DNA of 34,222 nucleotides from a virus: UHGV virus genome UHGV-0086334; one strand, written 5' to 3'. Under the pieces are notes generated by a model, which was not told the DNA's origin, made no database searches, and saw only the letters and a list, made by a program, of their open reading frames with translations. The position numbers were made by a program, and so were the translations under genes. Positions 3,736 through 34,222 of the stretch are shown piece by piece (position 1 is the stretch's first letter; each line of letters opens with the position of its first letter).

Positions 3736-4137
3736 ATGACCCAATTAATTAACCACACGAGTGCGCACTATAGTGACGACGGTAAAAACTACCTGGATTC
3801 AATTCTGTGGCACATGAACGCAGCCGCGCGAGCACGTACCCGCTCGACATATTGTCCGCCACCTAAAAACACTGACGTTGTGGTAATTGCAAAACCTGAG
3901 CACGTAGCAGTTATCCGCCCGGCAGAAATAACATCAGGGACTGCCAAAACGCATACCGGCGTTGTTATTAAAAATACTGGCGAGCGCACAGTAAAACTCC
4001 GTGAAACAGCGACTGCGTGGTCTGCGGGTGTAAGGGAGAACTACGATAAAAAAACAGGTTACCGCTTAGGCGCATCAGGCAGCACCCGGTTGTTACTCGA
4101 CACCGTGAAGCCCATCAGGAAGAAGGGCAAAAAATAA
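3736..4137 (+). CDS. Hypothetical phage protein
   Basis: 133-aa ORF in nin-like region, co-oriented and tightly packed with neighbours. Confidence 0.45.
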   Translation: MTQLINHTSAHYSDDGKNYLDSILWHMNAAARARTRSTYCPPPKNTDVVVIAKPEHVAVIRPAEITSGTAKTHTGVVIKNTGERTVKLRETATAWSAGVRENYDKKTGYRLGASGSTRLLLDTVKPIRKKGKK

Positions 4138-8312: not shown

Positions 8313-9548
8313 TCAGAATTTCCGTTCTTTCCAGCGTTTAACCAACGCGGCCATGTTCAGCGGCCATAATTTAGGCTCAATCACTTTGCCTTCAAACATC
8401 GCGCCGAGCTCAATACCTGGGGCAAAATGTACGGTCATTGTTTCAGGGTTGACGGCCATCAGCTCTGCGTCTAGTAAGTCGTGTATCGTTGGAGTCAACA
8501 ACAGGCCATTATCAGCGCTAAAATTGCCTGAGGTAGCTGGCTCAATGTGCGCCGCTTGCAATCGTTCGCCGTTCTGCCAGCCAGTCACCGCGCAACGGCC
8601 AGCAAAATTATTCCATACCCATTCAACGAACTGCATATGCGCCGTCGCGTCGCGCTGCTCAACGATGCGCTGCGCGGTTCGGGTACTGTGGAGTTTGACA
8701 GGTTGGCCAAGCGCGGGCGCGGGTTTATCTTCCTCCACGACTACCACTACTTCCTGCGACATGATGATTCGATCATCGGCTACCAGTTCCGGAACAACAT
8801 CGGCCAGCTTCTCGGCTTCTCGGATGATTTGCTTTTCTTCCTGATCATCCAGGTACCGCTGCACCAGTTCAATGGTCGTGGTGGCTTCATGCTGGTGTTT
8901 GTGGATATAAAGCTCAACATCACGACGCTGGCTGGCTGGAATGTGTTTTGCCAGAAAATCCTGTAGGACGCGATTATCCAGCTTTGTCGTAACTTTTGAT
9001 GTCATGCTCACAGAATCATACCGTTTCGGTGTTTCCATCTGCGTTGATTGCAGGCCTGGTAATTCGGTGTTGATTTGAGCGGAAACCTTGCGCGGGATGA
9101 TTGTCGGCGTAAATGCTGGCGTGCTGGCCTGGGACGTGCCACGGCGACGGGCATTCTCCCAAAGGGCTTCTGTTTCAGGGTTTTTGCGTGCGCCTGGCTT
9201 TTGCATAGGCATAGTGCGAATCAGCGCTTCCCAGCCCATATTGACCTTCTGTTTGGCCTCGCGGCGTTTATCGGCCAGCGTAGGTTTTGATGGTCGTTTT
9301 TTGGAGAGCGCTTTCTCTGGTTTTAATTTGATGCCGCGCGATAAACCATTTATCAGTGTTGGATGCACTGATAAGGCTTTGGCCAATTGCAAACCGTTTA
9401 AATTGCTGCCATCTGTATAAGCGTACATAAACAAATCCGCCCAGCCATCATGTTGAGGGGTCATACCCACGCTGGTTAAGGCTGCGCGAATCTCTTTTTT
9501 GCGAGCTTTGTCCAAGTTAAATTTTGGGGTTTTATTTCGCTTAGTCAT
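8313..9548 (-). CDS. HNH-family nuclease domain protein
   Basis: 411 aa; C-terminal CAVTGW-x7-LQAAHIEP-x10-NGLLLTPTIHDLLD matches an HNH-type nuclease core; N-terminal 300 aa basic, unassigned. Confidence 0.6.
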   Translation of the reverse strand: MTKRNKTPKFNLDKARKKEIRAALTSVGMTPQHDGWADLFMYAYTDGSNLNGLQLAKALSVHPTLINGLSRGIKLKPEKALSKKRPSKPTLADKRREAKQKVNMGWEALIRTMPMQKPGARKNPETEALWENARRRGTSQASTPAFTPTIIPRKVSAQINTELPGLQSTQMETPKRYDSVSMTSKVTTKLDNRVLQDFLAKHIPASQRRDVELYIHKHQHEATTTIELVQRYLDDQEEKQIIREAEKLADVVPELVADDRIIMSQEVVVVVEEDKPAPALGQPVKLHSTRTAQRIVEQRDATAHMQFVEWVWNNFAGRCAVTGWQNGERLQAAHIEPATSGNFSADNGLLLTPTIHDLLDAELMAVNPETMTVHFAPGIELGAMFEGKVIEPKLWPLNMAALVKRWKERKF

Positions 9549-9628: not shown

Positions 9629-10480
<852 letters not shown>

Positions 10481-21950: not shown

Positions 21951-22183
21951 TGACCGCGCGCGAGGTTTTAACAGAACGGCTGCTGGAAGCGGAAATCGCT
22001 CTGCACAAATTATTAACGGGTAAATCGACCGTGTCGCTGTCTCACGGCGATTCAGCGGGAAATAACCGGAGCTATCAGTACTCCCAGGCGAGTATTGAAC
22101 AGCTCCGAACGTACATTATCGAGCTGAAATCACAGCTCGGTCTGAGTACGGGACGCCGCCGTCCCGTGGGAGTTCGATTATGA
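21950..22183 (+). CDS. W: Head-tail joining protein, lambda gpW-like
   Basis: 77 aa; LHKLLTGK...YIIELKSQLG...RRRP resembles lambda gpW; gene order A-W-B. Confidence 0.75.
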   Translation: MTAREVLTERLLEAEIALHKLLTGKSTVSLSHGDSAGNNRSYQYSQASIEQLRTYIIELKSQLGLSTGRRRPVGVRL

Positions 22184-23003
22184 CTGCTCCACAGCAGCTG
22201 CTCGGGCCTGACGGTAAAACGCCACTACGCCGTTTTGCGGGGTATAACGGCGGCGGTCCCGGTTTCGGTGGCCAGCTGATTGACTGGAATGCGCCACAGC
22301 AAAGCGCCGATGCGGCACTGCTGCCTAATTTTTATCGCGGTAACGCGCGAGCAGACGATCTCGTTCGCAATAACGGTGTCGCGTCGAACGCCGTGCAGCT
22401 GCACCAGGATCATATTGTCGGCAATCTGTTTAAATTGAGTTATCGCCCTAACTGGCGTTACCTAGGGATATCTCGCGAGGACGCCAGGGCGCTGGCGCGT
22501 GACGTTGAGGTCGCGTGGACTGAATACGCTGAGGACCCTCACTGCACGATTGATATCGAGCGGAAACGGACGTTCACAATGATGATCCGCGAGGGTGTGG
22601 CCACTCACGCGTTTAACGGTGAAACCTGCGTACAACCGGTCTGGGAAAGCAGTACCGGTAGCGTTTTTCGGACGCGATTCAAAATGGTTTCGCCGAAACG
22701 GATTCGAAATCCGGGTTACGCAGCTGACACCCGATTTCGCCGCGCCGGTGTTGATATCGATAAAAATGGAGCCGCAGTGGGCTACTGGATAGCCGAGGAC
22801 ACCTATCCACTCGGTGGAATCGGCAAGTGCCGGCGTATACCAGCGCAGCTCAGCAGCGGCAGACACGCATTCATTCACATATTCGAGCCGCTCGAGGACG
22901 GACAGACCCGCGGAGATAACATTTTCTACAGCGTGATGGAGCGTCTGAAAATGCTCGACACGCTGCAGCAAACACAACTGCAGAGCGCCATTGTGAAGGC
23001 GAT
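22180..23003 (+). pseudogene. B: Portal protein (lambda gpB-like), 5' fragment interrupted by insertion
   Basis: LLGPDGKTPLRRFAGYNGGGPGFGGQL, LLPNFYRGNARADDLVRNNG, KRTFTMMIREGVATHAFNGE, DGQTRGDNIFYSVMERLKMLDTLQQTQLQSAIVKA match lambda gpB; after codon ...VKA the frame reads IYVYHLTVVARIVRQLH and stops at 23055. Confidence 0.85.
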
Positions 23004-23010
23004 TTATGTC
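22996..23010. other. attL core of inserted element
   Basis: AAGGCGATTTATGTC here versus AAGGCGATGTATGCC at 33898..33912 (13 of 15 identical), at the exact points where portal homology breaks and resumes. Confidence 0.6.
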
Positions 23011-23132
23011 TATCATCTCACCGTAGTTGCCCGCATCGTTCGCCAACTCCACTGAAACCCTTGCTGCGTCTGGAATGTCGTTTTCCATGCTTTTGATGAC
23101 CGTTCATCACCCTTCCAGTTTTTCGCGGTTTT

Positions 23133-23185
23133 GTGTATTGCAATGTGTATTGCAAATTGGCGATCGGGATGGGTGTGTATTGCAA
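23133..23185 (+). repeat. Integrase arm-type repeats (attL side)
   Basis: Three copies of TGTGTATTGCAA at 23133, 23144 and 23174, just upstream of the integrase. Confidence 0.55.
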
Positions 23186-23203
23186 ATCTCTTGAGGGCTT
23201 TTA

Positions 23204-24445
23204 ATGGCTATTGAAAACAAACTCAGTGACAAACTGTTAAAGAGTCTTGTCGGAAAACGGCAGGACAAACAAAAAACAATAGCGGATGGGCGCGGGTTGT
23301 CTGTGCGTGTAAGCATGGTTGGGGGGATCAGCTTTGTTTTTTACTATCGTCTTGGTGGCAGGGAATCCCCTCCGGTATGGCTTACACTTGGTCGCTATCC
23401 TGACATGTCTCTTGCAACGGCCAGGCGCATGCGTGATCAGTGCCGTGAATGGCTGGCTGAAAATCTGGACCCCCGCAGGCAAATAAAACTTGCTGCCGAA
23501 AAAACTATGCAACCAGTGACCGTAAGGGATGCGCTGTTTTACTGGTACGACAATCACGCCACAACAGCCAGAAAAGAGCATGAATATTTAATAAAACGAT
23601 TTGAAAAGCATATCTTCCCCTATATCGGTGATATGGCTATAGAACAGTGCAAATTACACACATGGCTTACCGTCTTTGACAGGATCAAAAAAAATGCGCC
23701 TGTTATGTCTGGTGCAATTTTTCTTGATATCAAACAGGCGTTGCGTTTTTGTCGCGTCAGGCAATACATCGCGTGCGATCCCTTTGGAGATATTAACGTA
23801 AGTTATGTCGGGCGCTCATCCGGTATAAGGGATCGCGTTCTTAATATCAATGAAACCGCTGATGTATGGTCTTATGCTTACGGTAATAATTTGCTAACTC
23901 TGTCATCAATATATAACCGAAGAATAATGGTTATCTGCCTGGTGTTTGGTTGCCGACAGCAGGAGGCGAGGCTATCCACTTGGGACGAATGGGATTTAAA
24001 AAACTGGGTATGGACAGTCCCAAAAGAGCACAGCAAAAACAAGGAGGCTATAGTAAGGCCTGTTCCTGACGGAATAAAACAATGGATCGTTAATCTTTAC
24101 GCAGAAACAAAAAATCGCGGTTATGTTGTCGGTTGTGCTTTGCAAAGGGCGACAATAACAGGGGCTGCAAACAGAATATGCAGGCGTCTTGGTCATGATA
24201 CTAATGGCTTGTGGTGCATACATGATTTCAGGCGCACATTTTCCACTACGCTTAATGATATGGGGGCGGATCCTTATATTGTCGAACTTCTTTTAGGTCA
24301 TAAAGTGAAAGGGGTTGCTGGTGTTTACAATAAAAGCAGGCATATAAAGAAAAAACTTGAGGTGCTTAATATGTGGGTTAATTACCTTAATACGATAGCA
24401 GGATTTAACAACAACGTTATCGAGCTTAATAAAGAGGTGGTGTGA
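23204..24445 (+). CDS. int: Tyrosine integrase, P4-type
   Basis: 413 aa; N-terminal LSDKLLKSL...DGRGLSVRVS arm-binding-type domain, catalytic blocks HDFRRTFST and LLGH...VYNK. Confidence 0.9.
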   Translation: MAIENKLSDKLLKSLVGKRQDKQKTIADGRGLSVRVSMVGGISFVFYYRLGGRESPPVWLTLGRYPDMSLATARRMRDQCREWLAENLDPRRQIKLAAEKTMQPVTVRDALFYWYDNHATTARKEHEYLIKRFEKHIFPYIGDMAIEQCKLHTWLTVFDRIKKNAPVMSGAIFLDIKQALRFCRVRQYIACDPFGDINVSYVGRSSGIRDRVLNINETADVWSYAYGNNLLTLSSIYNRRIMVICLVFGCRQQEARLSTWDEWDLKNWVWTVPKEHSKNKEAIVRPVPDGIKQWIVNLYAETKNRGYVVGCALQRATITGAANRICRRLGHDTNGLWCIHDFRRTFSTTLNDMGADPYIVELLLGHKVKGVAGVYNKSRHIKKKLEVLNMWVNYLNTIAGFNNNVIELNKEVV

Positions 24446-24446
24446 T

Positions 24447-24704
24447 ATGGCAATTTATTCTCTTGTTGATGAAAACGATTTGCGCACAATGAAGGACATT
24501 GATCGGTTCATTCGTGAAAAAGAGTGCATAGCACTTACCACGCTGGCAAACTCAACACGCTGGAAAATGGAGCAGGCAGGTAAATTCCCGCGACGTATCA
24601 AGATCGGTGAACGTGCTGCAGGGTATCGACTTTCAGAGGTTCAGGCATGGATCCGTGGTGAGTGGCATCCTGGATGGAAACCTGGAAAAACAAAACAGCA
24701 ATAA
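24447..24704 (+). CDS. AlpA-family DNA-binding regulator/excisionase-like
   Basis: 85 aa; RWKMEQAGKFPRRIKIGERAAGYRLSEVQAWI is the AlpA-type winged HTH; directly follows int. Confidence 0.7.
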   Translation: MAIYSLVDENDLRTMKDIDRFIREKECIALTTLANSTRWKMEQAGKFPRRIKIGERAAGYRLSEVQAWIRGEWHPGWKPGKTKQQ

Positions 24705-24715
24705 CCAGTAAATAA

Positions 24716-24740
24716 TGCCCCTCATCACGAGGGGTTTTTT
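24716..24740 (+). terminator. Intrinsic terminator
   Basis: CCCCTC-atcac-GAGGGG followed by TTTTTT. Confidence 0.6.
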
Positions 24741-24760
24741 GTCTATAAGGTAAAAACGCG

Positions 24761-25339
24761 ATGAATAAAAATATTGCCGTGACGGGCAAGGGGTACGCTC
24801 GTCCAGTGAAAAAATTCTGCGATATTCGTGATCTCGTCGTTCTGCGCTTTGATAGTGTGAACGTTCGTGTGGTGTATCTGAACGGCGATCCGTGGTTTGT
24901 TGCAAAAGATGTTTGTGCTGCGCTGGAACTAACCAATTCGCGTACGGCGTTGCAGATGCTTGATGATGATGAAAAGGGAGTAAATTTAACTTACACCCCA
25001 GGAGGAAATCAGAATATGAGAATTATCTCTGAGTCAGGTTTCTACAAACTAATAGCCCGCAGCCGCAAAGCAACGACGCCTGGCACATTTGCTCATCGTT
25101 TCAGTAACTGGGTATTCAGAAATGTGATACCAGGTATCAGAAAAACGGGGACTTATGGTATCCCGTGGGGTGCATTACAGGATTTTTCCCGCCGTAAAGA
25201 GCAATATCAAATAAGTGCCAGCGAGAAGGGGAGGGAGCTACAGGCATGTAAGCGCAAAAAGCGTGAGCTGGAGGAAGAAGAAAAAACGCTGATACGTGAA
25301 TATCAGCCTGAGTTTTACTTTGGTAACCGCATTCAGTGA
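24761..25339 (+). CDS. Bro-N domain protein (antirepressor-like)
   Basis: 192 aa; DPWFVAKDVCAALEL, ESGFYKLIARSRK, FSNWVF..VIPGIRKTGTYG fit the Bro-N domain. Confidence 0.7.
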   Translation: MNKNIAVTGKGYARPVKKFCDIRDLVVLRFDSVNVRVVYLNGDPWFVAKDVCAALELTNSRTALQMLDDDEKGVNLTYTPGGNQNMRIISESGFYKLIARSRKATTPGTFAHRFSNWVFRNVIPGIRKTGTYGIPWGALQDFSRRKEQYQISASEKGRELQACKRKKRELEEEEKTLIREYQPEFYFGNRIQ

Positions 25340-25348
25340 CAAAACAAA

Positions 25349-25369
25349 GGCGACCGCAAAAGGGTCGCC
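25349..25369. terminator. Stem-loop between convergent genes
   Basis: GGCGACC-gcaaaag-GGTCGCC right after the Bro-N stop; no clear T-tract. Confidence 0.4.
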
Positions 25370-25435
25370 AGTGGGAACAAGGGAAAACAAAAGCATCACC
25401 AACAATGCCACATTTGCGGCTGGTGGGCAATGTGA

Positions 25436-25615
25436 TCAGTCAGATTTGGTTCGTTCCAAGGTTTGCAACGAGAGCTTTTTCCTGTGCTCTTTAAGGAATT
25501 TCTCAAGAGCAAACGAACAAGGTGCGAATCTTTCTGATTCATGTTCATGCGCTATATTTTTGCGTCGTCTCTTACGAGTTGGTGATGGTGTTTTGGTTGA
25601 TTCTGTGTCGCTCAT
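25436..25615 (-). CDS. Small basic hypothetical protein (59 aa)
   Basis: My reading of the minus strand: ATG at 25615, AGGA RBS, MSDTESTKTPSPTRKRRRKNIAHEHESERF...; downstream of the repressor gene on the same strand. Confidence 0.25.
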   Translation of the reverse strand: MSDTESTKTPSPTRKRRRKNIAHEHESERFAPCSFALEKFLKEHRKKLSLQTLERTKSD

Positions 25616-25672
25616 GGTGCTGTCCTGTAAAGCAATGCGCCTGCGTTCCTCAAACTATGGCGCTGATATTGG

Positions 25673-25978
25673 CTATTCATGCTCTTTGACCTTGCGTCGC
25701 TGGAGTTCTTCACGCGCGACGGTGACGAGTTGCCCGATCTCCTCGGCTGCTTTGATGCCGATTTGTTCGACCTTAGCCAGGGCATCCAGTGACGACACAA
25801 GGGGATTTTCTCCGCTGCCTTCTGCTTGGCGGCGGGCTATTTCTCCGCGCATGGCGGTTACGATAAATCCGGCATTGCTTTCACCGTCCAGCTTAACGGA
25901 TTCCATCCCTTGCATAACATCTAGTGGGACTCTGACAGTTGTCAGTTGTGATTTTGCGTTTTTGTTAGCCGTTGCCAT
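25673..25978 (-). CDS. Putative repressor, possibly ribbon-helix-helix
   Basis: 101 aa; strong AGGAG RBS; divergent from the operator-bearing promoter at 26040; TTVRVPLDVMQGMESVKL is compatible with an RHH beta-strand/helix. Confidence 0.45.
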   Translation of the reverse strand: MATANKNAKSQLTTVRVPLDVMQGMESVKLDGESNAGFIVTAMRGEIARRQAEGSGENPLVSSLDALAKVEQIGIKAAEEIGQLVTVAREELQRRKVKEHE

Positions 25979-25999
25979 TTCTGAAACTCCTAATCATCG

Positions 26000-26077
26000 G
26001 TGTGTTTCAGTATACACAAAAAAAGAAATACAAAAAGCCTTGACGTGTGTTTCATGCGCTCATAACATGAAACACAC
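26000..26077. promoter_or_regulatory. Operator/promoter between divergent satellite genes
   Basis: Perfect inverted repeat GTGTGTTTCATG-n9-CATGAAACACAC (26045..26077) overlapping TTGACG -35 (26040..26045); third half-site GTGTGTTTCA at 26000..26009. Confidence 0.55.
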
Positions 26078-26168
26078 CGAAAGGATTGTTGAAATACAAA
26101 GAGCAACGCCCCGCAGTGCTGGGAACACATACGGGGCGTCTAACCAACAACGTAAACTAGGAGCCGTT

Positions 26169-26366
26169 ATGGTTGCTGTAAATCATATACCACACCTTGT
26201 ACACACACAAACGGCCTTTGTGTGGCGTTTTCTGGCACTGAGTGCCGGAGAATCTCAAATCATCCACGTAACCGCCTGGACGGAACGCGAAGCGCGTAGC
26301 CGTTGCCCGTCCGGTTGTGTTGCTGTATTCGCTGCAAAAATCCGCCAGGGAGTGAGTCATGCTTAA
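26169..26366 (+). CDS. Small hypothetical protein (65 aa), first gene of rightward satellite operon
   Basis: ATG 26169 preceded by AGGAG; it is the 3' part of the long ORF 25296..26366, whose upstream part I regard as non-coding. Confidence 0.45.
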   Translation: MVAVNHIPHLVHTQTAFVWRFLALSAGESQIIHVTAWTEREARSRCPSGCVAVFAAKIRQGVSHA

Positions 26367-26544
26367 AACCTTCCGTGTATTTGCCCGAGCTGTTAACCCA
26401 ATAGGCCACACAATTGGTATCGCTCAGAATGTGAAGGCTGTTAATGTTCAGACGGCTATTGCTGCGGTGAGAAGCGAATCATCAGAATATGGCTTATCAC
26501 AAGTCATTATTTCAGCAGTGTATGAATTAAAAGAGGTGCATTAA
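26359..26544 (+). CDS. Small hypothetical protein
   Basis: 61-aa ORF, start overlapping upstream stop. Confidence 0.4.
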   Translation: MLKTFRVFARAVNPIGHTIGIAQNVKAVNVQTAIAAVRSESSEYGLSQVIISAVYELKEVH

Positions 26545-26735
26545 TGCAGGAAATTACATTACACGAAGCCGCTGAACGTGCGCACCAGACAGAAATTATT
26601 TGCCGCCTTCTTGAGGTATACCCGAACAAAATTACAGATGCTGATATATCCGCACTGGCGAGCCTACTGGCGCGTCTTTCGGGAAGTGTCGCTAGTTTTT
26701 TGATTGAGGAAGAAAGTAAGCTGGTGGGGGATTAA
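26544..26735 (+). CDS. Small hypothetical protein
   Basis: 63-aa ORF, ATGA-type overlap. Confidence 0.4.
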   Translation: MQEITLHEAAERAHQTEIICRLLEVYPNKITDADISALASLLARLSGSVASFLIEEESKLVGD

Positions 26736-26957
26736 ATGAATACAGAACGGGAAGTCTTTTTTAAATTGTTAGCATGTGCAGAAAGTTCATTAACTTTAAA
26801 TAATTCAGCAAAAGCAATATTAAATATGTGGCTTGATTGCATAAATGACAATGAAGATGCAAATATTGCTTATGGCCTGTTGTCACTTATTGATGAATCA
26901 GCAGAAAAACTCAATGACGCAATAAATAGTGCCCTGCTATCAAATAAGTCGAGTTAA
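26736..26957 (+). CDS. Small hypothetical protein (AT-rich)
   Basis: 73-aa ORF, markedly more AT-rich than its neighbours. Confidence 0.4.
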   Translation: MNTEREVFFKLLACAESSLTLNNSAKAILNMWLDCINDNEDANIAYGLLSLIDESAEKLNDAINSALLSNKSS

Positions 26958-26974
26958 GTCGAGGAATAAATAAT

Positions 26975-27274
26975 ATGGAAATGAAAAATTCTGGCTTTAT
27001 TGCCAGCGGCCCCGCTCGACCTGAATTTATGAACGGCGATATTTACCGCGATAAATACGGCGGCACGGTAACGATTAAAGGCGTGGCAGAACGGCGCATC
27101 ACTTACCGCCGTGAGGGGTATAGCTATGACTGCGTGATGCCTGTTTATCAGTTCCGGCGTGATTTTTCCCTGGTATATGCCGCACCCCGCAGTAAATCCA
27201 TCAGCAGGGAAAAAGCGTGGGGAAATATCCAGAAAATGAAAACCATGATTAACGGATTCAGAGGTAAAAAATGA
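26975..27274 (+). CDS. Hypothetical protein
   Basis: 99-aa ORF with GAGGAA RBS; stop overlaps primase start. Confidence 0.45.
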   Translation: MEMKNSGFIASGPARPEFMNGDIYRDKYGGTVTIKGVAERRITYRREGYSYDCVMPVYQFRRDFSLVYAAPRSKSISREKAWGNIQKMKTMINGFRGKK

Positions 27275-29025
27275 AACTGGCACCGAACGTAAAACAGCAG
27301 TCACGCGGCATAAAACACAAAGGAACAGAAGTAATTATTTTTGCGGGTAGTGATGCCTGGGCACACGCGAAACAATGGCAGGAACATGATGCGCGTATGG
27401 CCGGAGATAATGAGCCTCCTGTGTGGCTTGGGGAGCAGCAGCTATCCGAACTGGATAATCTGCAAATTGTGCCGGAAGGCCGAAAATCAGCACGCATATA
27501 CAGGGCCGGATATCTTGCGCCTGTAATGATAAAGGCGATTGGTCAGAAGCTGGCGGCAGCAGGCGTACAGGATGCAAATTTTTATCCTGAGGGTATGCAC
27601 GGCCAGGAGGTGCAGAACTGGCGCGAATATCTGGCCCGTGAACGCCAGAATCTTTCTGATGGTCTGGTCATTGAGCTTCCGGTAAAGCAAAAGGCGCAAC
27701 TTTCGCAGATGGCGGACAGTGAGCGCGCGCAGTTGCTTGCCGATCGCTTTGATGGCGTTTGCGTACATCCTGAAAGTGAAATCGTTCACGTATGGCGCGG
27801 CGGGGTATGGTGTCCGGTCAGCACAATGGAACTTAGCCGCGAAATGGTGGCGATCTATTCAGAGCACAGGGCCACTTTCAGCAAGCGCGTAATCAATAAC
27901 GCCGTGGAAGCGTTAAAAGTTATTGCCGAACCAATGGGCGAGCCGTCTGGCGATTTGCTGCCGTTCGCCAATGGTGCGCTTGACCTGAAAACGGGGGAAT
28001 TTTCCCCGCACACGCCGGAGAACTGGATCACCACGCACAACGGCATTGAGTACACGCCACCAGCACCAGGGGAGAACATCCGCGATAACGCGCCAAACTT
28101 TCATAAATGGCTTGAGCACGCAGCCGGAAAAGACCCGCGCAAGATGATGCGTATATGTGCCGCGCTGTACATGATTATGGCGAACCGGTACGACTGGCAG
28201 ATGTTTATTGAGGCCACCGGAGACGGCGGGAGCGGTAAAAGTACATTCACACACATAGCCAGCCTTCTGGCAGGGAAACAGAACACGGTAAGCGCTGAAA
28301 TGACATCGCTTGATGATGCTGGTGGACGTGCGCAGGTTGTCGGGAGTCGTCTTATCGTCCTGGCTGACCAGCCGAAATATACAGGCGAAGGAACGGGCAT
28401 CAAGAAAATCACAGGCGGCGACCCCGTGGAAATTAACCCGAAATATGAAAAGCGTTTCACGGCGGTAATCAGGGCGGTGGTGCTGGCGACCAACAACAAC
28501 CCGATGATATTCACCGAACGGGCCGGAGGTGTGGCACGTCGTCGCGTGATTTTCCGTTTCGACAATATCGTCAGTGAGGCCGAAAAAGACAGGGAGCTAC
28601 CGGAAAAGATTGCGGCTGAAATCCCCGTTATTATCCGCCGATTGCTGGCGAACTTTACCGACCCTGAGAAGGCACGGGCTTTACTACTGGAACAGCGTGA
28701 CGGTGATGAAGCACTGGCAATAAAGCAACAGACGGATCCGGTTATTGAGTTTTGCCAGTTCCTGAATTTTCTGGAGGAAGCGCGCGGCCTGATGATGGGT
28801 GGCGGTGGTGATTCAGTGAAGTACACGACCAGGAACAGCCTTTACCGCGTCTATCTGGCGTTTATGGCATACGCGGGCAGGAGCAAACCGCTAAACGTGG
28901 CTGAGTTCAGCAAGGCCATGAAGCCAGCGGCGAAAGTTTACGGGCATGAATATATTACGCGAAAAGTTAAGGGAGTAACGCAGACCAACGCAATTACAAC
29001 AGACGATTGCGACGCGTTTTTATAA
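27271..29025 (+). CDS. Primase-helicase (P4 alpha / PICI Pri-Rep-like), SF3 helicase domain
   Basis: 584 aa; Walker A GDGGSGKSTF, RLIVLADQ Walker B-like, D5-type C-terminal region; followed by iterons. Confidence 0.85.
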   Translation: MKLAPNVKQQSRGIKHKGTEVIIFAGSDAWAHAKQWQEHDARMAGDNEPPVWLGEQQLSELDNLQIVPEGRKSARIYRAGYLAPVMIKAIGQKLAAAGVQDANFYPEGMHGQEVQNWREYLARERQNLSDGLVIELPVKQKAQLSQMADSERAQLLADRFDGVCVHPESEIVHVWRGGVWCPVSTMELSREMVAIYSEHRATFSKRVINNAVEALKVIAEPMGEPSGDLLPFANGALDLKTGEFSPHTPENWITTHNGIEYTPPAPGENIRDNAPNFHKWLEHAAGKDPRKMMRICAALYMIMANRYDWQMFIEATGDGGSGKSTFTHIASLLAGKQNTVSAEMTSLDDAGGRAQVVGSRLIVLADQPKYTGEGTGIKKITGGDPVEINPKYEKRFTAVIRAVVLATNNNPMIFTERAGGVARRRVIFRFDNIVSEAEKDRELPEKIAAEIPVIIRRLLANFTDPEKARALLLEQRDGDEALAIKQQTDPVIEFCQFLNFLEEARGLMMGGGGDSVKYTTRNSLYRVYLAFMAYAGRSKPLNVAEFSKAMKPAAKVYGHEYITRKVKGVTQTNAITTDDCDAFL

Positions 29026-29040
29026 TTTTTTGTAAAAGCC

Positions 29041-29262
29041 ATCTACCCCATCTACCTGAACGAAATAAACGCATATTATTCAACATGATAAGTGGGTATA
29101 GGGCTAGGTAGAAGGCTAATAAAAGCTCTCTACCTCTTCTACCTGATTTTATCAGTTTCAGGTAGCAGGGTAGACGGCAGGTAGAGGAGTCAAAAAAGCT
29201 ATCTACCCGCTGAAAGCGTCGCCATTACTGACATGATGAGTATTCGGGTAGATGGGTAGAGG
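29041..29262. repeat. Iteron-type replication origin
   Basis: About 12 direct and inverted copies of (A/T)CTACC or GGTAG(A/T) right after the primase-helicase gene. Confidence 0.65.
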
Positions 29263-29313
29263 GGGGGAGGCACAACTAAAAACTTTTTAAACGAGGGGGG
29301 GGGGTGAAAATAA

Positions 29314-29628
29314 ATGCGCATACATAAAAATCACTTAACAAACATGCCAGCCGAAAACATGAATCAGGGGCGACAAATGACCAAAATTCGCAGAGACAGA
29401 ACACAGGCAAAATATAAAGCGTTAGACATGACAGAGCTTTCCTTAAAGGTGGCAATCAAAGCGATAGACCACCACACACGGGCAGGATACGCGAAGGAAC
29501 ATCCCGACCTGATAAGCGCATTTATGACCACAGCAGCGGCAAACTTTGCCACGCTGACAGAACGGGAGATTGCCGAAGCGGAACAGGTGACAACCATCAA
29601 TGTTAAAACCGGAGAGCAGACAGCATGA
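29314..29628 (+). CDS. Hypothetical protein
   Basis: ORF track 104 aa; likelier start ATG 29377 (AGGGG RBS). Confidence 0.45.
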   Translation: MRIHKNHLTNMPAENMNQGRQMTKIRRDRTQAKYKALDMTELSLKVAIKAIDHHTRAGYAKEHPDLISAFMTTAAANFATLTEREIAEAEQVTTINVKTGEQTA

Positions 29629-30047
29629 CAGCACAGATAGCGGCTTACGGGCGGCTGGTGGCTGACCCGCAGTTAAAGACCACCAGCAAAGGGACACAAA
29701 TGGCGATGGCGAGTATGGCGGTTCCCCTGCCGTGCAGCCAGGCAGATGACGGAACGGCGACGATGTGGTTATCCGTCCTGGCGTTTGGCAGACAGGCCGA
29801 CGCACTGGCAAAACACCACAAAGGCGAACTGGTGAGCGTGGCGGGTAACATGCAGGTAAGCCAGTGGACAGGCCAGAACGGCGAAACGCGGCGGGGCTGG
29901 CAGGTTATCGCAGACAGCGTAATCAGTGCGCGAACGGCGCGACCGGGCGGCAAAAAAGGCCAGCAGGGGCAGGCCACTGACGCACTGAACAGGGCAAAAC
30001 AACAGTCGGGGAATGATGATCCGTACGGCGATAATATACCGTTTTAA
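29625..30047 (+). CDS. Single-stranded DNA-binding protein (SSB-like)
   Basis: 140 aa; YGRLVADPQLKTT, TMWLSVLAFGRQA, Gly/Gln-rich linker and acidic tail ending DDPYGDNIPF. Confidence 0.7.
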   Translation: MTAQIAAYGRLVADPQLKTTSKGTQMAMASMAVPLPCSQADDGTATMWLSVLAFGRQADALAKHHKGELVSVAGNMQVSQWTGQNGETRRGWQVIADSVISARTARPGGKKGQQGQATDALNRAKQQSGNDDPYGDNIPF

Positions 30048-30063
30048 ATTCTGCAAACAAAAA

Positions 30064-30092
30064 GATGCCGGAAAAAAATAGATTTTCCGGCA
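30064..30092. terminator. Stem-loop, possible terminator
   Basis: ATGCCGGAAAA-n7-TTTTCCGGCAT inverted repeat after the SSB stop. Confidence 0.45.
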
Positions 30093-30258
30093 TGCTACAT
30101 AAATCCCGACCAAAGGAAGTAAATACATTAACACGAATTATCAGCACTGAAGTTGTTACGGCATATTTTATACAACATTGCACTTGGTTGCATGTGTTCG
30201 CATAGCAGACATCGGTAATAGAATATATTCACAATTATTTGTAATGAATGTAAAGAGG

Positions 30259-31305
30259 ATGAGTATGGTTGATTTATATTCGCCTACACAGCTTGTGCAG
30301 GTGGCTAATGCTGAAGATGTGCAAAAAAAATTAAATGCGTTGTTTACCAGTTTGTTTTTCACTCGCTCGGTAATGTTTGAATCGAGAGACATTATTCTTG
30401 ATACGATCGACGATCCAAATATCCCGATCGCGGCGTTTTGCTCTCCTATGGTGGGCAGTAAAGTTTCACGAGATGAGGGATACGAATCAAAAACAATTCG
30501 TCCAGGTTATATGAAGCCGAAAAGCAGCATTGATCCAAATAAGTTAGCTGTGCGCCCTGCTGGTGTGTCACCTGAGCAATACAATGCTTTTGGGGCGCGT
30601 AATATTAAAGTTAAACAGGCGATTGTAAATCAGGCTAAAGCTATTCGTGCACGTATTGAATGGCTTGCTGTTCAGGCAATCACAACGGGGAAAAATATCA
30701 TTGAGGGCGATGGTATTGAACGTTATGAGCTGGACTGGAATATAAAACCACAAAATATCATCACTCAGTCTGGCGGTACTGAGTGGTCAGGTAAGGATAA
30801 AGAAACTTTTGATCCAAATGATGATATTGAGAGCTACGCAGAATTTAGTGAGGGCGTCACTAATATCATCATTATGGGTGGTAATGTATGGAAGAAATAC
30901 CGTTCATTCAGAGCGATAAAAGAGGCTTTGGATACCCGTCGTGGTTCTAATTCCGAACTGGAAACGGCCCTTAAAGACCTTGGTGATTCGGTGAGTTTTA
31001 AAGGGTATATGGGCGATGTTGCGATTGTTGTTTACAGCGGGCGTTATACCGACGAGGACGGAACAGAAAAACATTTCCTTGATCCTGATTTGATGGTGCT
31101 TGGCAATACGGCTCTTCAGGGGATTGTCGCCTATGGCGGTATTCAGGATCCGGAGCTAATCCGAATGGGGCTGACTAAAGCCGAACTTGCACCGAAAAAC
31201 TATATTGTGCCTGGTGATCCGGCTATTGAATATGTGCAGACACATTCAGCACCACAGCCAATACCGGCCCGCATCAATCGTTTTGTTACCGTTCGCATTG
31301 GCTAA
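30259..31305 (+). CDS. E: Major capsid protein, lambda gpE-like
   Basis: Starts MSM as lambda gpE does; IITQSGGTEWSGKDKETFDPNDDIESYA, FRAIKEALDTRRGSNSELETALKDLG, GDVAIVVYSGRY, MVLGNT match my recollection of lambda gpE. Confidence 0.85.
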   Translation: MSMVDLYSPTQLVQVANAEDVQKKLNALFTSLFFTRSVMFESRDIILDTIDDPNIPIAAFCSPMVGSKVSRDEGYESKTIRPGYMKPKSSIDPNKLAVRPAGVSPEQYNAFGARNIKVKQAIVNQAKAIRARIEWLAVQAITTGKNIIEGDGIERYELDWNIKPQNIITQSGGTEWSGKDKETFDPNDDIESYAEFSEGVTNIIIMGGNVWKKYRSFRAIKEALDTRRGSNSELETALKDLGDSVSFKGYMGDVAIVVYSGRYTDEDGTEKHFLDPDLMVLGNTALQGIVAYGGIQDPELIRMGLTKAELAPKNYIVPGDPAIEYVQTHSAPQPIPARINRFVTVRIG

Positions 31306-31314
31306 GGGGGAGCA

Positions 31315-31656
31315 ATGGCTACTCATTACACTGAACTCATGGCTGGCACTGAAGCACTGGTGACTACGCTGGGGATATTTTCAGCTAATAAAGGGGTAAT
31401 TCCTGCATTTACGCCACTGATGCAGGAAGATGCAACAGGTGCACTGGTGGTATGGGATGGTTCGAGCGTAGGTAAAGCGGTTTATGTTTCCGCTGTACAA
31501 ATCGACACCGCGAAAAAAATACAGGCTCAGGTCTATAAGACAGGTGTCTTAAATGTTGATGCTCTGAACTGGCCTGAGTCTGTTAAAGAACTGTCAGTAA
31601 AGGTTGCAGCGTTTGTTGGCTCAGGTATTTCTGTTCAGCCGCTGGCTCGTGTGTAA
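31315..31656 (+). CDS. D: Capsid decoration protein, lambda gpD-like
   Basis: 113 aa; FTPLM, LVVWDGSSVGKAV, YKTGV, WPES, AAFVGSGISV match lambda gpD blocks. Confidence 0.75.
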   Translation: MATHYTELMAGTEALVTTLGIFSANKGVIPAFTPLMQEDATGALVVWDGSSVGKAVYVSAVQIDTAKKIQAQVYKTGVLNVDALNWPESVKELSVKVAAFVGSGISVQPLARV

Positions 31657-31667
31657 AGGGGGATACA

Positions 31668-32051
31668 ATGCAGAATGATTACAATGACCTTAAGCCAATT
31701 GCCGAAATGATGTACCCGAATCCAGCTGTAGAGGAATTAAAAGCTATCGCTGACAAAATGTGTTTAAGCGAGCGCCTTGTTGATATGAATCAGGTGATGG
31801 AAATTACAACCCTGAGTCGTCGTACACTGCTAAACCTTGAGGCTAGTGGAGAGTTCCCGGAGCGTGTGCAGGTTACGGAAGGGCGTAAGGCCTGGTATTT
31901 AAGTGAAGTGATCGACTGGATAAATAATATTCCTCGCGCTTCTGAATATTGCCGCGTACCTGTCCCAAAAAAGCCAGATGCGGCGCTATGCCTCAAGATT
32001 GAGCGTGTACGCCGCAATGCACGGGATGGTCGCTATAAGCTGATTGGTTGA
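31668..32051 (+). CDS. AlpA-family HTH protein
   Basis: 127 aa; VMEITTLSRRTLLNLEASGEFPERVQVTEGRKAWYLSEVIDWI is an AlpA-type HTH; AGGGGG RBS. Confidence 0.6.
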   Translation: MQNDYNDLKPIAEMMYPNPAVEELKAIADKMCLSERLVDMNQVMEITTLSRRTLLNLEASGEFPERVQVTEGRKAWYLSEVIDWINNIPRASEYCRVPVPKKPDAALCLKIERVRRNARDGRYKLIG

Positions 32052-32074
32052 TGAAATTAGGGCCCGCTCTGGCT

Positions 32075-32135
32075 GGCGGGTCCTTTCCGGTGATCCGGTA
32101 GGCTACGGGGCGGCGACCTCGCGGGTTTTCGCTAT
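32075..32135 (+). other. Lambda-type cos site of the inserted element
   Basis: GGGTCCTTTCCGGTGATCCGGTAGGCTACG then GGGCGGCGACCT (32108..32119) then CGCGGGTTTTCGCTATTTATGA; the 12-mer is the lambda cohesive-end sequence as I recall it, and the flanks match lambda's right and left ends. Confidence 0.75.
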
Positions 32136-32252
32136 TTATGAGCCTTTTTCGGGTGCTGGTGGTGGTTTTGTTGTTCGCTCTATCTCTATGAATAAAAAGG
32201 AAAAGATAAAGCCAATACACCAACCTGAAACATTACTTAAGTGGGGATATTG

Positions 32253-32795
32253 ATGAAATCGCACCTGATGAACAAAAAAAACATGGCGCAAAGCTGCCGT
32301 GTAAGTGCGACAGCGTTCGACAAGTGGGGAGTGACTCCCGTTGAACGTAAAGGCCGCGAGGCGTTTTATGATGTTGCCAGCGTAATAGACAATCGGGTTA
32401 GCAATGCAATTAACCAGATTACAGACGACAAAGGCGAGATTGATGATGATGAACTCCTACGAGTCAGGATCAGATTGCTGACAGCACAGGCAGAGGCGCA
32501 GGAGCTTAAAAACGAGCGCGAACGCGGCGACGTTATTGATACAGCGTTTTGTATATACGTGCTTTCAAAATTGGCGAGTCAGATTTCTTCAATCATGGAC
32601 AGCCTGCCGCTTGCCATGACAAGGAAGTTTCCCGACATGAAGCCGTCTATGCTGGATGGACTGAAAAAAGAAGTTATCAGAGCCTGTAACGCATGCGCAA
32701 AACTTGACGAAAACATACCGCTGATGCTGTCCGATTATCTGATGGAAACTGCCGGAAACGTACCGGATAAGTTGCAGCCGAATAAAGATAAGTAA
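32253..32795 (+). CDS. Nu1: Terminase small subunit, lambda Nu1-like
   Basis: LLTAQAEAQELKNERERGDVIDTAFCIYVLSKLASQISSIMDSLPLAMTRKFPDM...KLDENIPLMLSDYL aligns closely with lambda Nu1 C-terminal half; N-terminus MNKKNMAQ resembles Nu1 MEVNKKQLA; start could be ATG 32268. Confidence 0.8.
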   Translation: MKSHLMNKKNMAQSCRVSATAFDKWGVTPVERKGREAFYDVASVIDNRVSNAINQITDDKGEIDDDELLRVRIRLLTAQAEAQELKNERERGDVIDTAFCIYVLSKLASQISSIMDSLPLAMTRKFPDMKPSMLDGLKKEVIRACNACAKLDENIPLMLSDYLMETAGNVPDKLQPNKDK

Positions 32796-32806
32796 CGTAG
32801 TACGCT

Positions 32807-33088
32807 ATGACTGAATCCGAAATACTGCGATTAATCCGCCGTGCTTGTGGAATCAGCAAGCAGCATGACGAACAGGCCACGCAGCCGGACAGCGTGACCG
32901 CAGATAATTATGTGCGTGTAGTGGCTGAGGTGATGCGCCGTGACGGTATTGAGCTTAACGGCGTGGATATGCGCAACATACGAACAAGAGTCCTTGAGTT
33001 GCTGGCATATCGTCGCCGTTCTCAACAACGGAGGGAGAGCGCGAAAAATACTTACCAGTGGAAGAAGCCGGAACGATTGCGGCGGTAA
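32807..33088 (+). CDS. Hypothetical protein
   Basis: 93-aa ORF, Arg-rich C-terminus. Confidence 0.4.
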   Translation: MTESEILRLIRRACGISKQHDEQATQPDSVTADNYVRVVAEVMRRDGIELNGVDMRNIRTRVLELLAYRRRSQQRRESAKNTYQWKKPERLRR

Positions 33089-33344
33089 CTTGCTGATATT
33101 CCCGATAACGCAAAATTGCGCTGGCTGACTTGTTGCATTGCAAAAAGTTAAGCAGGAAGGCACGGCCTGTAAGATGGGATGCAGTAAGTAGTTCAAGGCT
33201 ACCTTGTGCTGGCACGCACAGTTAAGCCGTCGGTGCTGGATATCCCCCACTGGGGGAAAAGCTGGCTACATCCCTCACATCTGAGGACTGATAACGCGAC
33301 ATTGCGCTGGCTGGCAAAGTGCAAAATTGCACGATGGCCTAACC

Positions 33345-33494
33345 CATTGATTATTTCGAAAACCTGCAATGCAGGAAATCGGGGAAGTAAGCCTAAGCTA
33401 TTGATTGTTTCGAAAACCCCCATTGGGGGATGTCGGGAAAGTAAGACTAACCCATTGATTCTTCCACAATCCTCAATTTGAGGAGGCCGGAACG
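33345..33494 (+). repeat. Three phased 54-bp tandem repeats, each with a central 13-bp palindrome
   Basis: Unit CATTGATT-n-TTCGAAAACC-palindrome-GGGAAGTAAG; palindromes CCTGCAaTGCAGG (33363), CCCCCAtTGGGGG (33417), CCTCAAtTTGAGG (33471) exactly 54 bp apart. Confidence 0.6.
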
Positions 33495-33801
33495 TCTACA
33501 TAGCTGCATCGCCGTAATGATGATTCAGCCCACCAGCCAAATCAGCACAGCAACGACAGAATAGCCCGACACAGAAAAACCACGAATATGGGGTTTTTGT
33601 TATGACATGGTCATGATGACCACTCATACAAAACAGGTAAAGCCCACCAGCCTGATTAAAGGTTAACCGGAAAAAAGCCAGGTATCCAATCTCGATATGG
33701 GGATCCCTATATCGACATTAACGCCCACTAAAACTGTGCATATATGCATAGAAAAAGCATCCACCAGCTTTATGACGGATGCCGCTCATCTTATAAATAA
33801 T

Positions 33802-33824
33802 CGTGTATTGCAGTGTGTATTGCG
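33802..33824 (+). repeat. Integrase arm-type repeats (attR side)
   Basis: CGTGTATTGCA and GTGTGTATTGCG, same motif as the attL-side repeats. Confidence 0.5.
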
Positions 33825-33897
33825 ACTCCTTTAAACGATAGGTCTGAGCATTCGTAATGTACTGTTTTTAAATTTTATTTTTTCCTGTCTTTTCATA

Positions 33898-33912
33898 AAG
33901 GCGATGTATGCC
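33898..33912. other. attR core of inserted element
   Basis: AAGGCGATGTATGCC; portal reading frame resumes here (K-A-M-Y-A-A-T-I-E-S-E-L-D). Confidence 0.6.
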
Positions 33913-34167
33913 GCGACAATCGAATCAGAGCTCGACAGCCAGCAGGCGTTTGAATATATCGCCGGCGCGGGTACTGATATCGACTCGAACCCACTGAATT
34001 CGTTTATTCAGAGTTACGTGACGTACTACAACGGCGCAAACATTAAATTAGGCGGCGTGAAAGTCCCTCACCTGCACCCCGGCGACAAACTCAGTTTACA
34101 GACCGCTCAGAACGCTGACGCTGGTTTCAGTTCGCTGGAAAAATCACTCCTGCGTTACGTTGCCGCT
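33898..34167 (+). pseudogene. B: Portal protein (lambda gpB-like), middle fragment, truncated at its 3' end
   Basis: [44 protein letters not shown] continue the lambda gpB alignment exactly where the 5' fragment stopped; ends at a TAG supplied by the following IS-like sequence. Confidence 0.85.
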
Positions 34168-34222
34168 TAGACTGGCCCCCTGAATCTCCAGACAACCAAT
34201 ATCACTTAAATAAGTGATAGTC
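34168..34222 (+). mobile_element. Terminal ~55 bp of an IS2-like insertion sequence (continues beyond window)
   Basis: TAGACTGGCCCCCTGAATCTCCAGACAACCAATATCACTTAAATAAGTGATAGTC matches my recollection of the IS2 terminus; portal homology ends abruptly here. Confidence 0.65.

Follow-up and report, generated by a model that had tools for sequence, protein, structure and literature searches.

An IS2 end at the terminus of a viral contig marks a second interruption of the portal gene in an E. coli prophage carrying a helper-embedded satellite

The window, i.e. the whole stretch of 34,222 nucleotides of viral DNA that was analysed (UHGV virus genome UHGV-0086334, one strand, 5' to 3'), comprises in its positions 1-23008 that part of a prophage in which the immunity, replication, accessory, Q, lysis and terminase genes lie. 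This prophage belongs to a type that combines lambda-type head genes with contractile-tail genes and that, in related genomes, lies beside a tRNA-Ser gene. All genes of the reference, from the repressor side up to and including gpW, are present at full length in the window, without frameshift, and the portal is the sole damaged gene seen among those checked, namely the genes of the window and the head genes located on contig OLOP01000086.1. On the minus strand, a PD-T4-3 GIY-YIG anti-phage defence gene occupies positions 9629-10480 (PADLOC E=7e-138; Pfam LEM-3_GIY-YIG), and a gene for an HNH-domain protein, at 8313-9548 on the same strand, adjoins it. The features of the portal region are collected in Table 1.

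Table 1. Coordinates of the portal pieces, the embedded satellite and the IS2 end in the window.
Feature	Position	Strand	Basis or remark
Portal 5' fragment, portal nt 1-~824 (about codons 1-276)	22180-23008 (alignment end 23006/8)	+	Aligned to the CFSAN061769 portal; PF05136 E=5e-58, profile 3-242
attL core AAGGCGATTTATG	22996-23008	+	Flanks as in the published Eco...11.B_Phage_portal_2_241 attL; published identity block aaggcgat
HE-PICI, 10,889 bp	23009-33897	+	Gene content, att sites, doubled motif
Doubled motif TGTATTGCnnnnTGTATTGC	23134-23153	+	Starts 132 bp downstream of the att core centre
Doubled motif	33804-33823	+	Ends 81 bp upstream of the att core centre
attR core AAGGCGATGTATG	33898-33910	+	Comparison with published att sequences
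Portal middle fragment, portal nt ~809-1083	33898-34167 (alignment from ~33893)	+	PF05136 profile 238-318
CCGCT, left copy of the 5-bp IS2 target-site duplication	34163-34167	+	Same 5 bases after the IRR on OLOP01000086.1; single CCGCT in the intact portal
IS2 left inverted repeat (IRL, 42 bp)	34168-34209	+	Identical to the IRL printed in PMC3299598
IS2 interior, first 13 bp ATAAGTGATAGTC	34210-34222	+	Window and contig end at 34222

The long segment inserted in the portal encodes an integrase (domains Arm-DNA-bind_3 and Phage_integrase), AlpA, Bro-N, DUF4222, a D5-type primase, an SSB, a gpE-like capsid protein, a gpD-like decoration protein, a second AlpA and a Nu1-like TerS, all of its key genes lying on the plus strand like the portal itself; no portal, protease or large terminase is encoded between positions 23009 and 33897. 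The satellite capsid and decoration proteins are 42% and 36% identical, respectively, to those of the resident prophage (window 30178-31656 compared with the head genes of loci L008 and L006). Helper-embedded PICIs (HE-PICIs) are a class published by Tommasini, Mageeney and Williams (2023, PMC10111431); it includes the site group B:Phage_portal_2:241 and is marked by a doubled tgTGTATTGCantgTGTATTGCa motif, 81±2 bp upstream and 132±2 bp downstream of the attP centre. In the window, the doubled TGTATTGC motif occurs exactly at only two places, compared with 0.05 occurrences expected by chance. Besides, the portal is split at positions 238-242 of its Pfam profile, and the aaggcgat core together with the attL and attR flanks is that of Eco10269.11.B_Phage_portal_2_241 (supplement of PMC10111431). 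The size of about 10.9 kb, the late-operon orientation, the aaggcgat block, the att sequences, the motif at 81 and 132 bp and the published order of the zones (integrase/AlpA, Bro, replication, late) are all shared with this group, and on these grounds the 10.9-kb insertion is an HE-PICI at B:Phage_portal_2:241, a known element type. In addition, copies that are 99.5-99.9% identical to the satellite split the portals of other lambdoid prophages in complete genomes, where IS2 is absent; the IS2-free loci inspected are those of strains 20Y000092, which has the closest satellite copy (99.9% identical), and 210205630. What sets the present lineage apart from the published group is that the target gene of the helper also carries IS2, 257 bp past the attR core, so that excision of the satellite cannot restore the gene.

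The portal was mapped by comparison with an intact gene of 523 codons from the same prophage type in strain CFSAN061769 (L006). The 5' fragment ends in the attL core, its open reading frame reading on into the satellite up to position 23055, and the middle fragment can be called as an 88-aa open reading frame (33904-34170) that ends in ...LLRYVAA and then in a TAG derived from IS2. The overlap between the two pieces (portal nt 809-824) is the att core. More precisely, homology to the portal (Pfam PF05136, lambda family) stops at 34167, whose T still belongs to the portal: the reference reads ...GTTGCCGCT / GGCGTCGG... (GCCGCT followed by GGCGTC) whereas the window reads ...GTTGCCGCT / TAGACTGG.... 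Because the reference still matches the window through 34167, IS2 starts exactly at 34168, and its first three bases (34168-34170) are the TAG that terminates the portal reading frame. The point of entry lies between portal nt 1083 and 1084, and the portal is truncated after codon 362 of 524, which corresponds to codon 361 of 523 in the reference allele. The Phage_portal_2 (PF05136) profile is spread over three pieces (3-242, 238-318 and 317-354), the last of them on another contig, and no single open reading frame matches it at full length as found, one 524-aa frame being obtained only once both insertions have been removed in silico. The closest uninterrupted portal by DNA, that of E. coli YZMc3-1 (L002 3188-4760; 98% over the middle fragment), is annotated as frameshifted, which is, going by that annotation, another route of portal decay in the same prophage family.

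The window terminates in ...CTGCGTTACGTTGCCGCT / TAGACTGGCCCCCTGAATCTCCAGACAACCAATATCACTTAAATAAGTGATAGTC, and its positions 34168-34222 match the IS2 IRL oligonucleotide TAGACTGGCCCCCTGAATCTCCAGACAACCAATATCACTTAAATAAGTGATAGTC of PMC3299598 at 55 of 55 positions, without a single mismatch; since this is identity to a defined mobile-element terminus, the match is far beyond chance and identifies the last 55 bases as the left end of IS2. This insertion sequence has a 42-bp IRL, a 41-bp IRR, a -1 frameshift at A6G that joins OrfA and OrfB into OrfAB, and a weak promoter within the IRL, and it transposes by a copy-out/paste-in pathway through a figure-of-eight and a minicircle (PMC3219604, PMC3299598). 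In complete E. coli genomes, the terminal 55-mer yields 20,386 matches with up to 100% identity, distributed over 4,699 of 5,426 genomes, on chromosomes as well as plasmids, the median among genomes with at least one copy being 3. In the annotated IS2 copy used as a reference, a gene for an IS3-family transposase, which contains a programmed frameshift, follows 91 nt downstream of the 55-mer; this copy, from E. coli SK1144, measures 1331 bp (L001 2501-3831), begins with the same 55 nt as those of the window and ends in ...GGGGCAAATCCA. It adjoins iha, and its flanks (GTGGT at L001 2496-2500 versus TTGTC at 3832-3836) form no matching 5-bp duplication, which suggests a rearrangement at that copy.

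Contigs that end inside a multicopy insertion sequence are normal in short-read assembly. The fact that the window stops after 55 nt of IS2 is explained in this way, since short-read assemblies break at such a repeat. The exact 88-aa product formed by the open reading frame and IS2 is recorded on 7 contigs, which come from at least 3 samples and from different assemblers; ERR688595 and ERR972161 are examples of accessions with the junction. The three contigs inspected extend 29, 54 and 126 nt into IS2 and all end inside it, and two of them are identical to the window over their entire upstream length (10,264 and 2,056 nt). The 126 nt of IS2 on the longest-reaching sister contig (L003) show 2 mismatches compared with the 1331-bp copy and run past the start of orfA. 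The junction between portal and IS2 was found in none of the 5,426 complete E. coli genomes, the best coverage reached by the query 33700-34222 being 52% where a record of the junction would give 62%, and the 40-mer spanning the left junction had no match in the GTDB species-representative genomes. The original prediction, made from the letters of the window, had placed the end of portal homology at ...LLRYVAA with a TAG opening IS2 and had considered the portal as interrupted twice. The terminus turned out to be correct to the base, at 55 of 55 positions against the published IRL and interior, and the end of the homology is exact in both coordinates and content. As for the two interruptions, portal pieces nt 1-824 and 809-1083 are indeed separated by the 10,889-bp element, and IS2 follows after nt 1083. 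Neither a downstream sequence other than IS2 nor an uninterrupted continuation of the portal was encountered, as the sister contig runs on in IS2 and portal homology ends at 34167.

The target-site duplication of IS2 is 5 bp long. A simple insertion at this place predicts the IRR followed by CCGCT and GGCGTCGG..., a pattern for which metagenome contigs were scanned. One contig only among those scanned has the predicted right junction, the 69.7-kb OLOP01000086.1 (L008), which reads ...GGAAATATAGGGGCAAATCCA / CCGCT / GGCGTCGGCGCGTCATACGA... and whose IRR is identical to the published 41-bp IRR (ending ...CAAATCCA) at 40 of 41 positions. This contig ends with exactly 55 nt of IS2 on the IRR side (L008 5529-5583), just as the window ends with 55 nt on the IRL side. 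Beyond the junction, it carries the last 162 portal codons, an S49 protease, D- and E-type head genes, FI, FII and two more genes; the protease, D, E, FI, FII and the two further genes are all at full length compared with the reference. When the left and middle pieces of the window are joined in silico to OLOP01000086.1, the satellite, IS2 and one CCGCT being removed, an open portal frame of 524 codons results, in which 514 of the 523 residues of the CFSAN061769 reference are identical. The other IS2 end and the target duplication, which the original prediction expected beyond the window, have therefore been located, on a separate contig that combines the IRR, CCGCT and the rest of the portal. 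A hybrid promoter that would draw on the outward -35 of the IRR at this right junction was considered and rejected, the sequence at the -10 position (CGCTGG) being, as judged by eye, not -10-like.

Since the IRR is followed by the same five bases as those preceding IS2 in the window, by the remainder of the portal and by head genes that are intact, the event has the appearance of a simple insertion, with 5 bp of target duplicated, and not of a deletion. An IS2-mediated deletion or rearrangement would instead leave unrelated DNA beyond IS2 and a prophage that is truncated, not merely interrupted. The window itself shows nothing past 55 nt of IS2, many helpers look truncated according to the HE-PICI paper (PMC10111431), and the SK1144 copy with its unmatched flanks suggests that rearrangements do occur. 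This scenario is nevertheless decidedly improbable, as OLOP01000086.1 provides IRR, CCGCT, the remaining 162 codons and intact head genes in a perfect reading frame with the window, an exact complement that is unlikely to arise by coincidence. That the window and OLOP01000086.1 derive from one genome is the most economical reading, short of proof, because CCGCT matches, the frame stays open across the join and both contigs have IS2 overhangs of 55 nt. Ends of this length are what a k=55 de Bruijn assembly leaves when it breaks at a repeat, which suggests that both contigs may stem from one assembly.

The same 55-nt ends, typical of k=55 de Bruijn assembly, could also be read as k-mer overhangs that were misattached, in which case the real portal would not be interrupted there and the junction would be an assembly artefact. 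However, independent assemblies of at least 3 samples, run with different k values, all contain the junction (with 29, 54 and 126 nt of IS2), its counterpart on the other side shows the expected 5-bp duplication, and even a k-mer overhang needs reads that span the junction, all of which makes an artefact highly improbable. As the window displays 55 nt only, one might further think of the terminus of another IS3-family element having the same end as IS2, but this is extremely improbable: the identity covers the whole 42-bp IRL and 13 nt beyond, the sister contig follows the 1331-bp IS2 beyond the orfA start, and the partner junction has the IS2 IRR. Compared with the IS2 described by Lewis et al. 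(Mob DNA 2011 and 2012; PMC3219604, PMC3299598), which shares the 42-bp IRL with the next 13 nt, the IRR at 40 of 41 positions and the 5-bp target duplication, no difference is detectable, only the insertion site being particular to the present lineage.

Taken together, these data make it highly likely that IS2 (1331 bp, IS3 family) has inserted in the lambda gene B cognate of an E. coli prophage already split by an HE-PICI, and that excision of the satellite would bring no repair, leaving the prophage without a portal of its own. In the proposed sequence of events, IS2 would have been copied out and pasted in via its minicircle, landing in the portal 257 bp downstream of the attR core, in the same orientation as the late operon, and would have duplicated its 5-bp target CCGCT. 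The terminal TAG of IS2 would halt translation after ...LLRYVAA and cut off the last 162 codons. Excision of the satellite would rejoin the portal across the att site only, IS2 staying in place, so that the open reading frame would still stop at codon 362. The two breaks are thereby not equivalent, the HE-PICI split being reversible and the IS2 break being separate and beyond repair by satellite excision. In lambda, proheads cannot be assembled and DNA cannot be packaged without the portal gpB, the product of gene B. For this reason, the view of the original prediction that the resident prophage is probably defective is a sound inference. A prophage that cannot make its own portal would not make DNA-filled heads, and the present one very probably cannot make particles of its own, although complementation by other prophages could occur. 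As for the satellite, whose own genes include neither a portal nor a protease nor a large terminase, it would depend on a compatible portal from another phage or prophage and would otherwise be stranded in this lineage.

HE-PICIs split the portal reversibly as a part of their lifestyle, and the satellite is a parasite of its helper; since an HE-PICI brings no replacement sequence, the late gene of the helper is kept off until excision (PMC10111431). The question raised by the original prediction, whether the element is a parasite, a domestication remnant or an inactivator of the prophage, is thus answered in large part by PMC10111431: the satellite is a parasite of its helper, here probably a stranded one.

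The prophage and its satellite might still be productive if a co-resident prophage furnished the portal, or if IS2 were excised precisely, for instance by an IS-excision enhancer. Enhancers of this kind (IEE) exist for the class of insertion sequence to which IS2 belongs. Asadulghani et al. (2009, PMC2669165) show that in E. coli O157 Sakai head defects of lambdoid prophages are made good by co-resident prophages, so that the head-defective ones are still packaged and even passed on. The likeness to these IS-disrupted prophages is clear, since there, too, an insertion sequence has inactivated a late or morphogenesis gene (e.g. nu1 of Sp4) while the rest is largely intact; in the present case, every other gene checked is intact, leaving a single defect. 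The differences are that the portal is hit here and that an embedded satellite is also present. Moreover, the window holds no source of a portal, the satellite has none, and a portal must fit its cognate capsid, protease and terminase, so that continued productivity appears rather unlikely.

In this context, the event at this locus is commonplace: IS2 has entered a late gene of a prophage, beside a satellite of an already described type, and no new question arises from it. The locus adds a further concrete case of IS-driven decay in an otherwise intact prophage that bears a defence gene, and the defence cargo could explain why a portal-crippled prophage is retained. Since excision of the satellite cannot repair the portal, the composite of helper and satellite is a dead end for self-mobilisation, and work on the present HE-PICI would be better based on an IS2-free lineage, e.g. 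20Y000092 or 210205630. Truncated helpers, 'abandoned HE-PICIs' and one insertion sequence very near attR are on record (PMC10111431). It could be imagined that IS2 acts as a ratchet and not as a random accident, converting the reversible switch of 'regulated gene integrity' into a permanent lock on helper and satellite: a portal silenced by the HE-PICI in the lysogen would be a selectively neutral target, and an insertion sequence near attR would lock both partners. Were this improbable idea true, the host would be favoured, keeping the PD-T4-3 defence gene without the risk of lysis, and IS insertions would be enriched in late genes split by HE-PICIs.

Concerning the packaging signals, the satellite contains an exact lambda-type cosN, GGGCGGCGACCT, at positions 32108-32119, with CGCGGGTTTTCGCTATTTATGA directly after it. 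A short way further downstream comes the Nu1-like terS of the satellite, the product of which matches the C-terminal half of the Nu1 profile only (positions 80-162 of 164). A 65-bp segment around the cosN (32077-32141) is 91% identical to the region preceding the terminase in the lambdoid helper of 20Y000092 (L009 3303-3367). In the resident prophage of the window, no cosN was found within one mismatch, and no cos segment common to satellite and resident prophage was detected at E<=1e-3. Owing to the former result, the resident prophage may rely on another type of cos, and a better-matched helper of the satellite may exist.

Finally, a related HE-PICI is found in E. coli O121 strain 201805972 (L007, NZ_CP119441.1 2609860-2638129), where it adjoins the 3' portal fragment of a different lambdoid prophage, the 5' fragment not being annotated upstream. 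Five IS1A copies are present in this region and split, among other things, the capsid gene of the satellite and the head-tail joining gene of the helper, and the same helper has a frameshifted tape measure gene and a gpJ with an internal stop. IS-driven decay of composites made of a helper and its HE-PICI therefore recurs.
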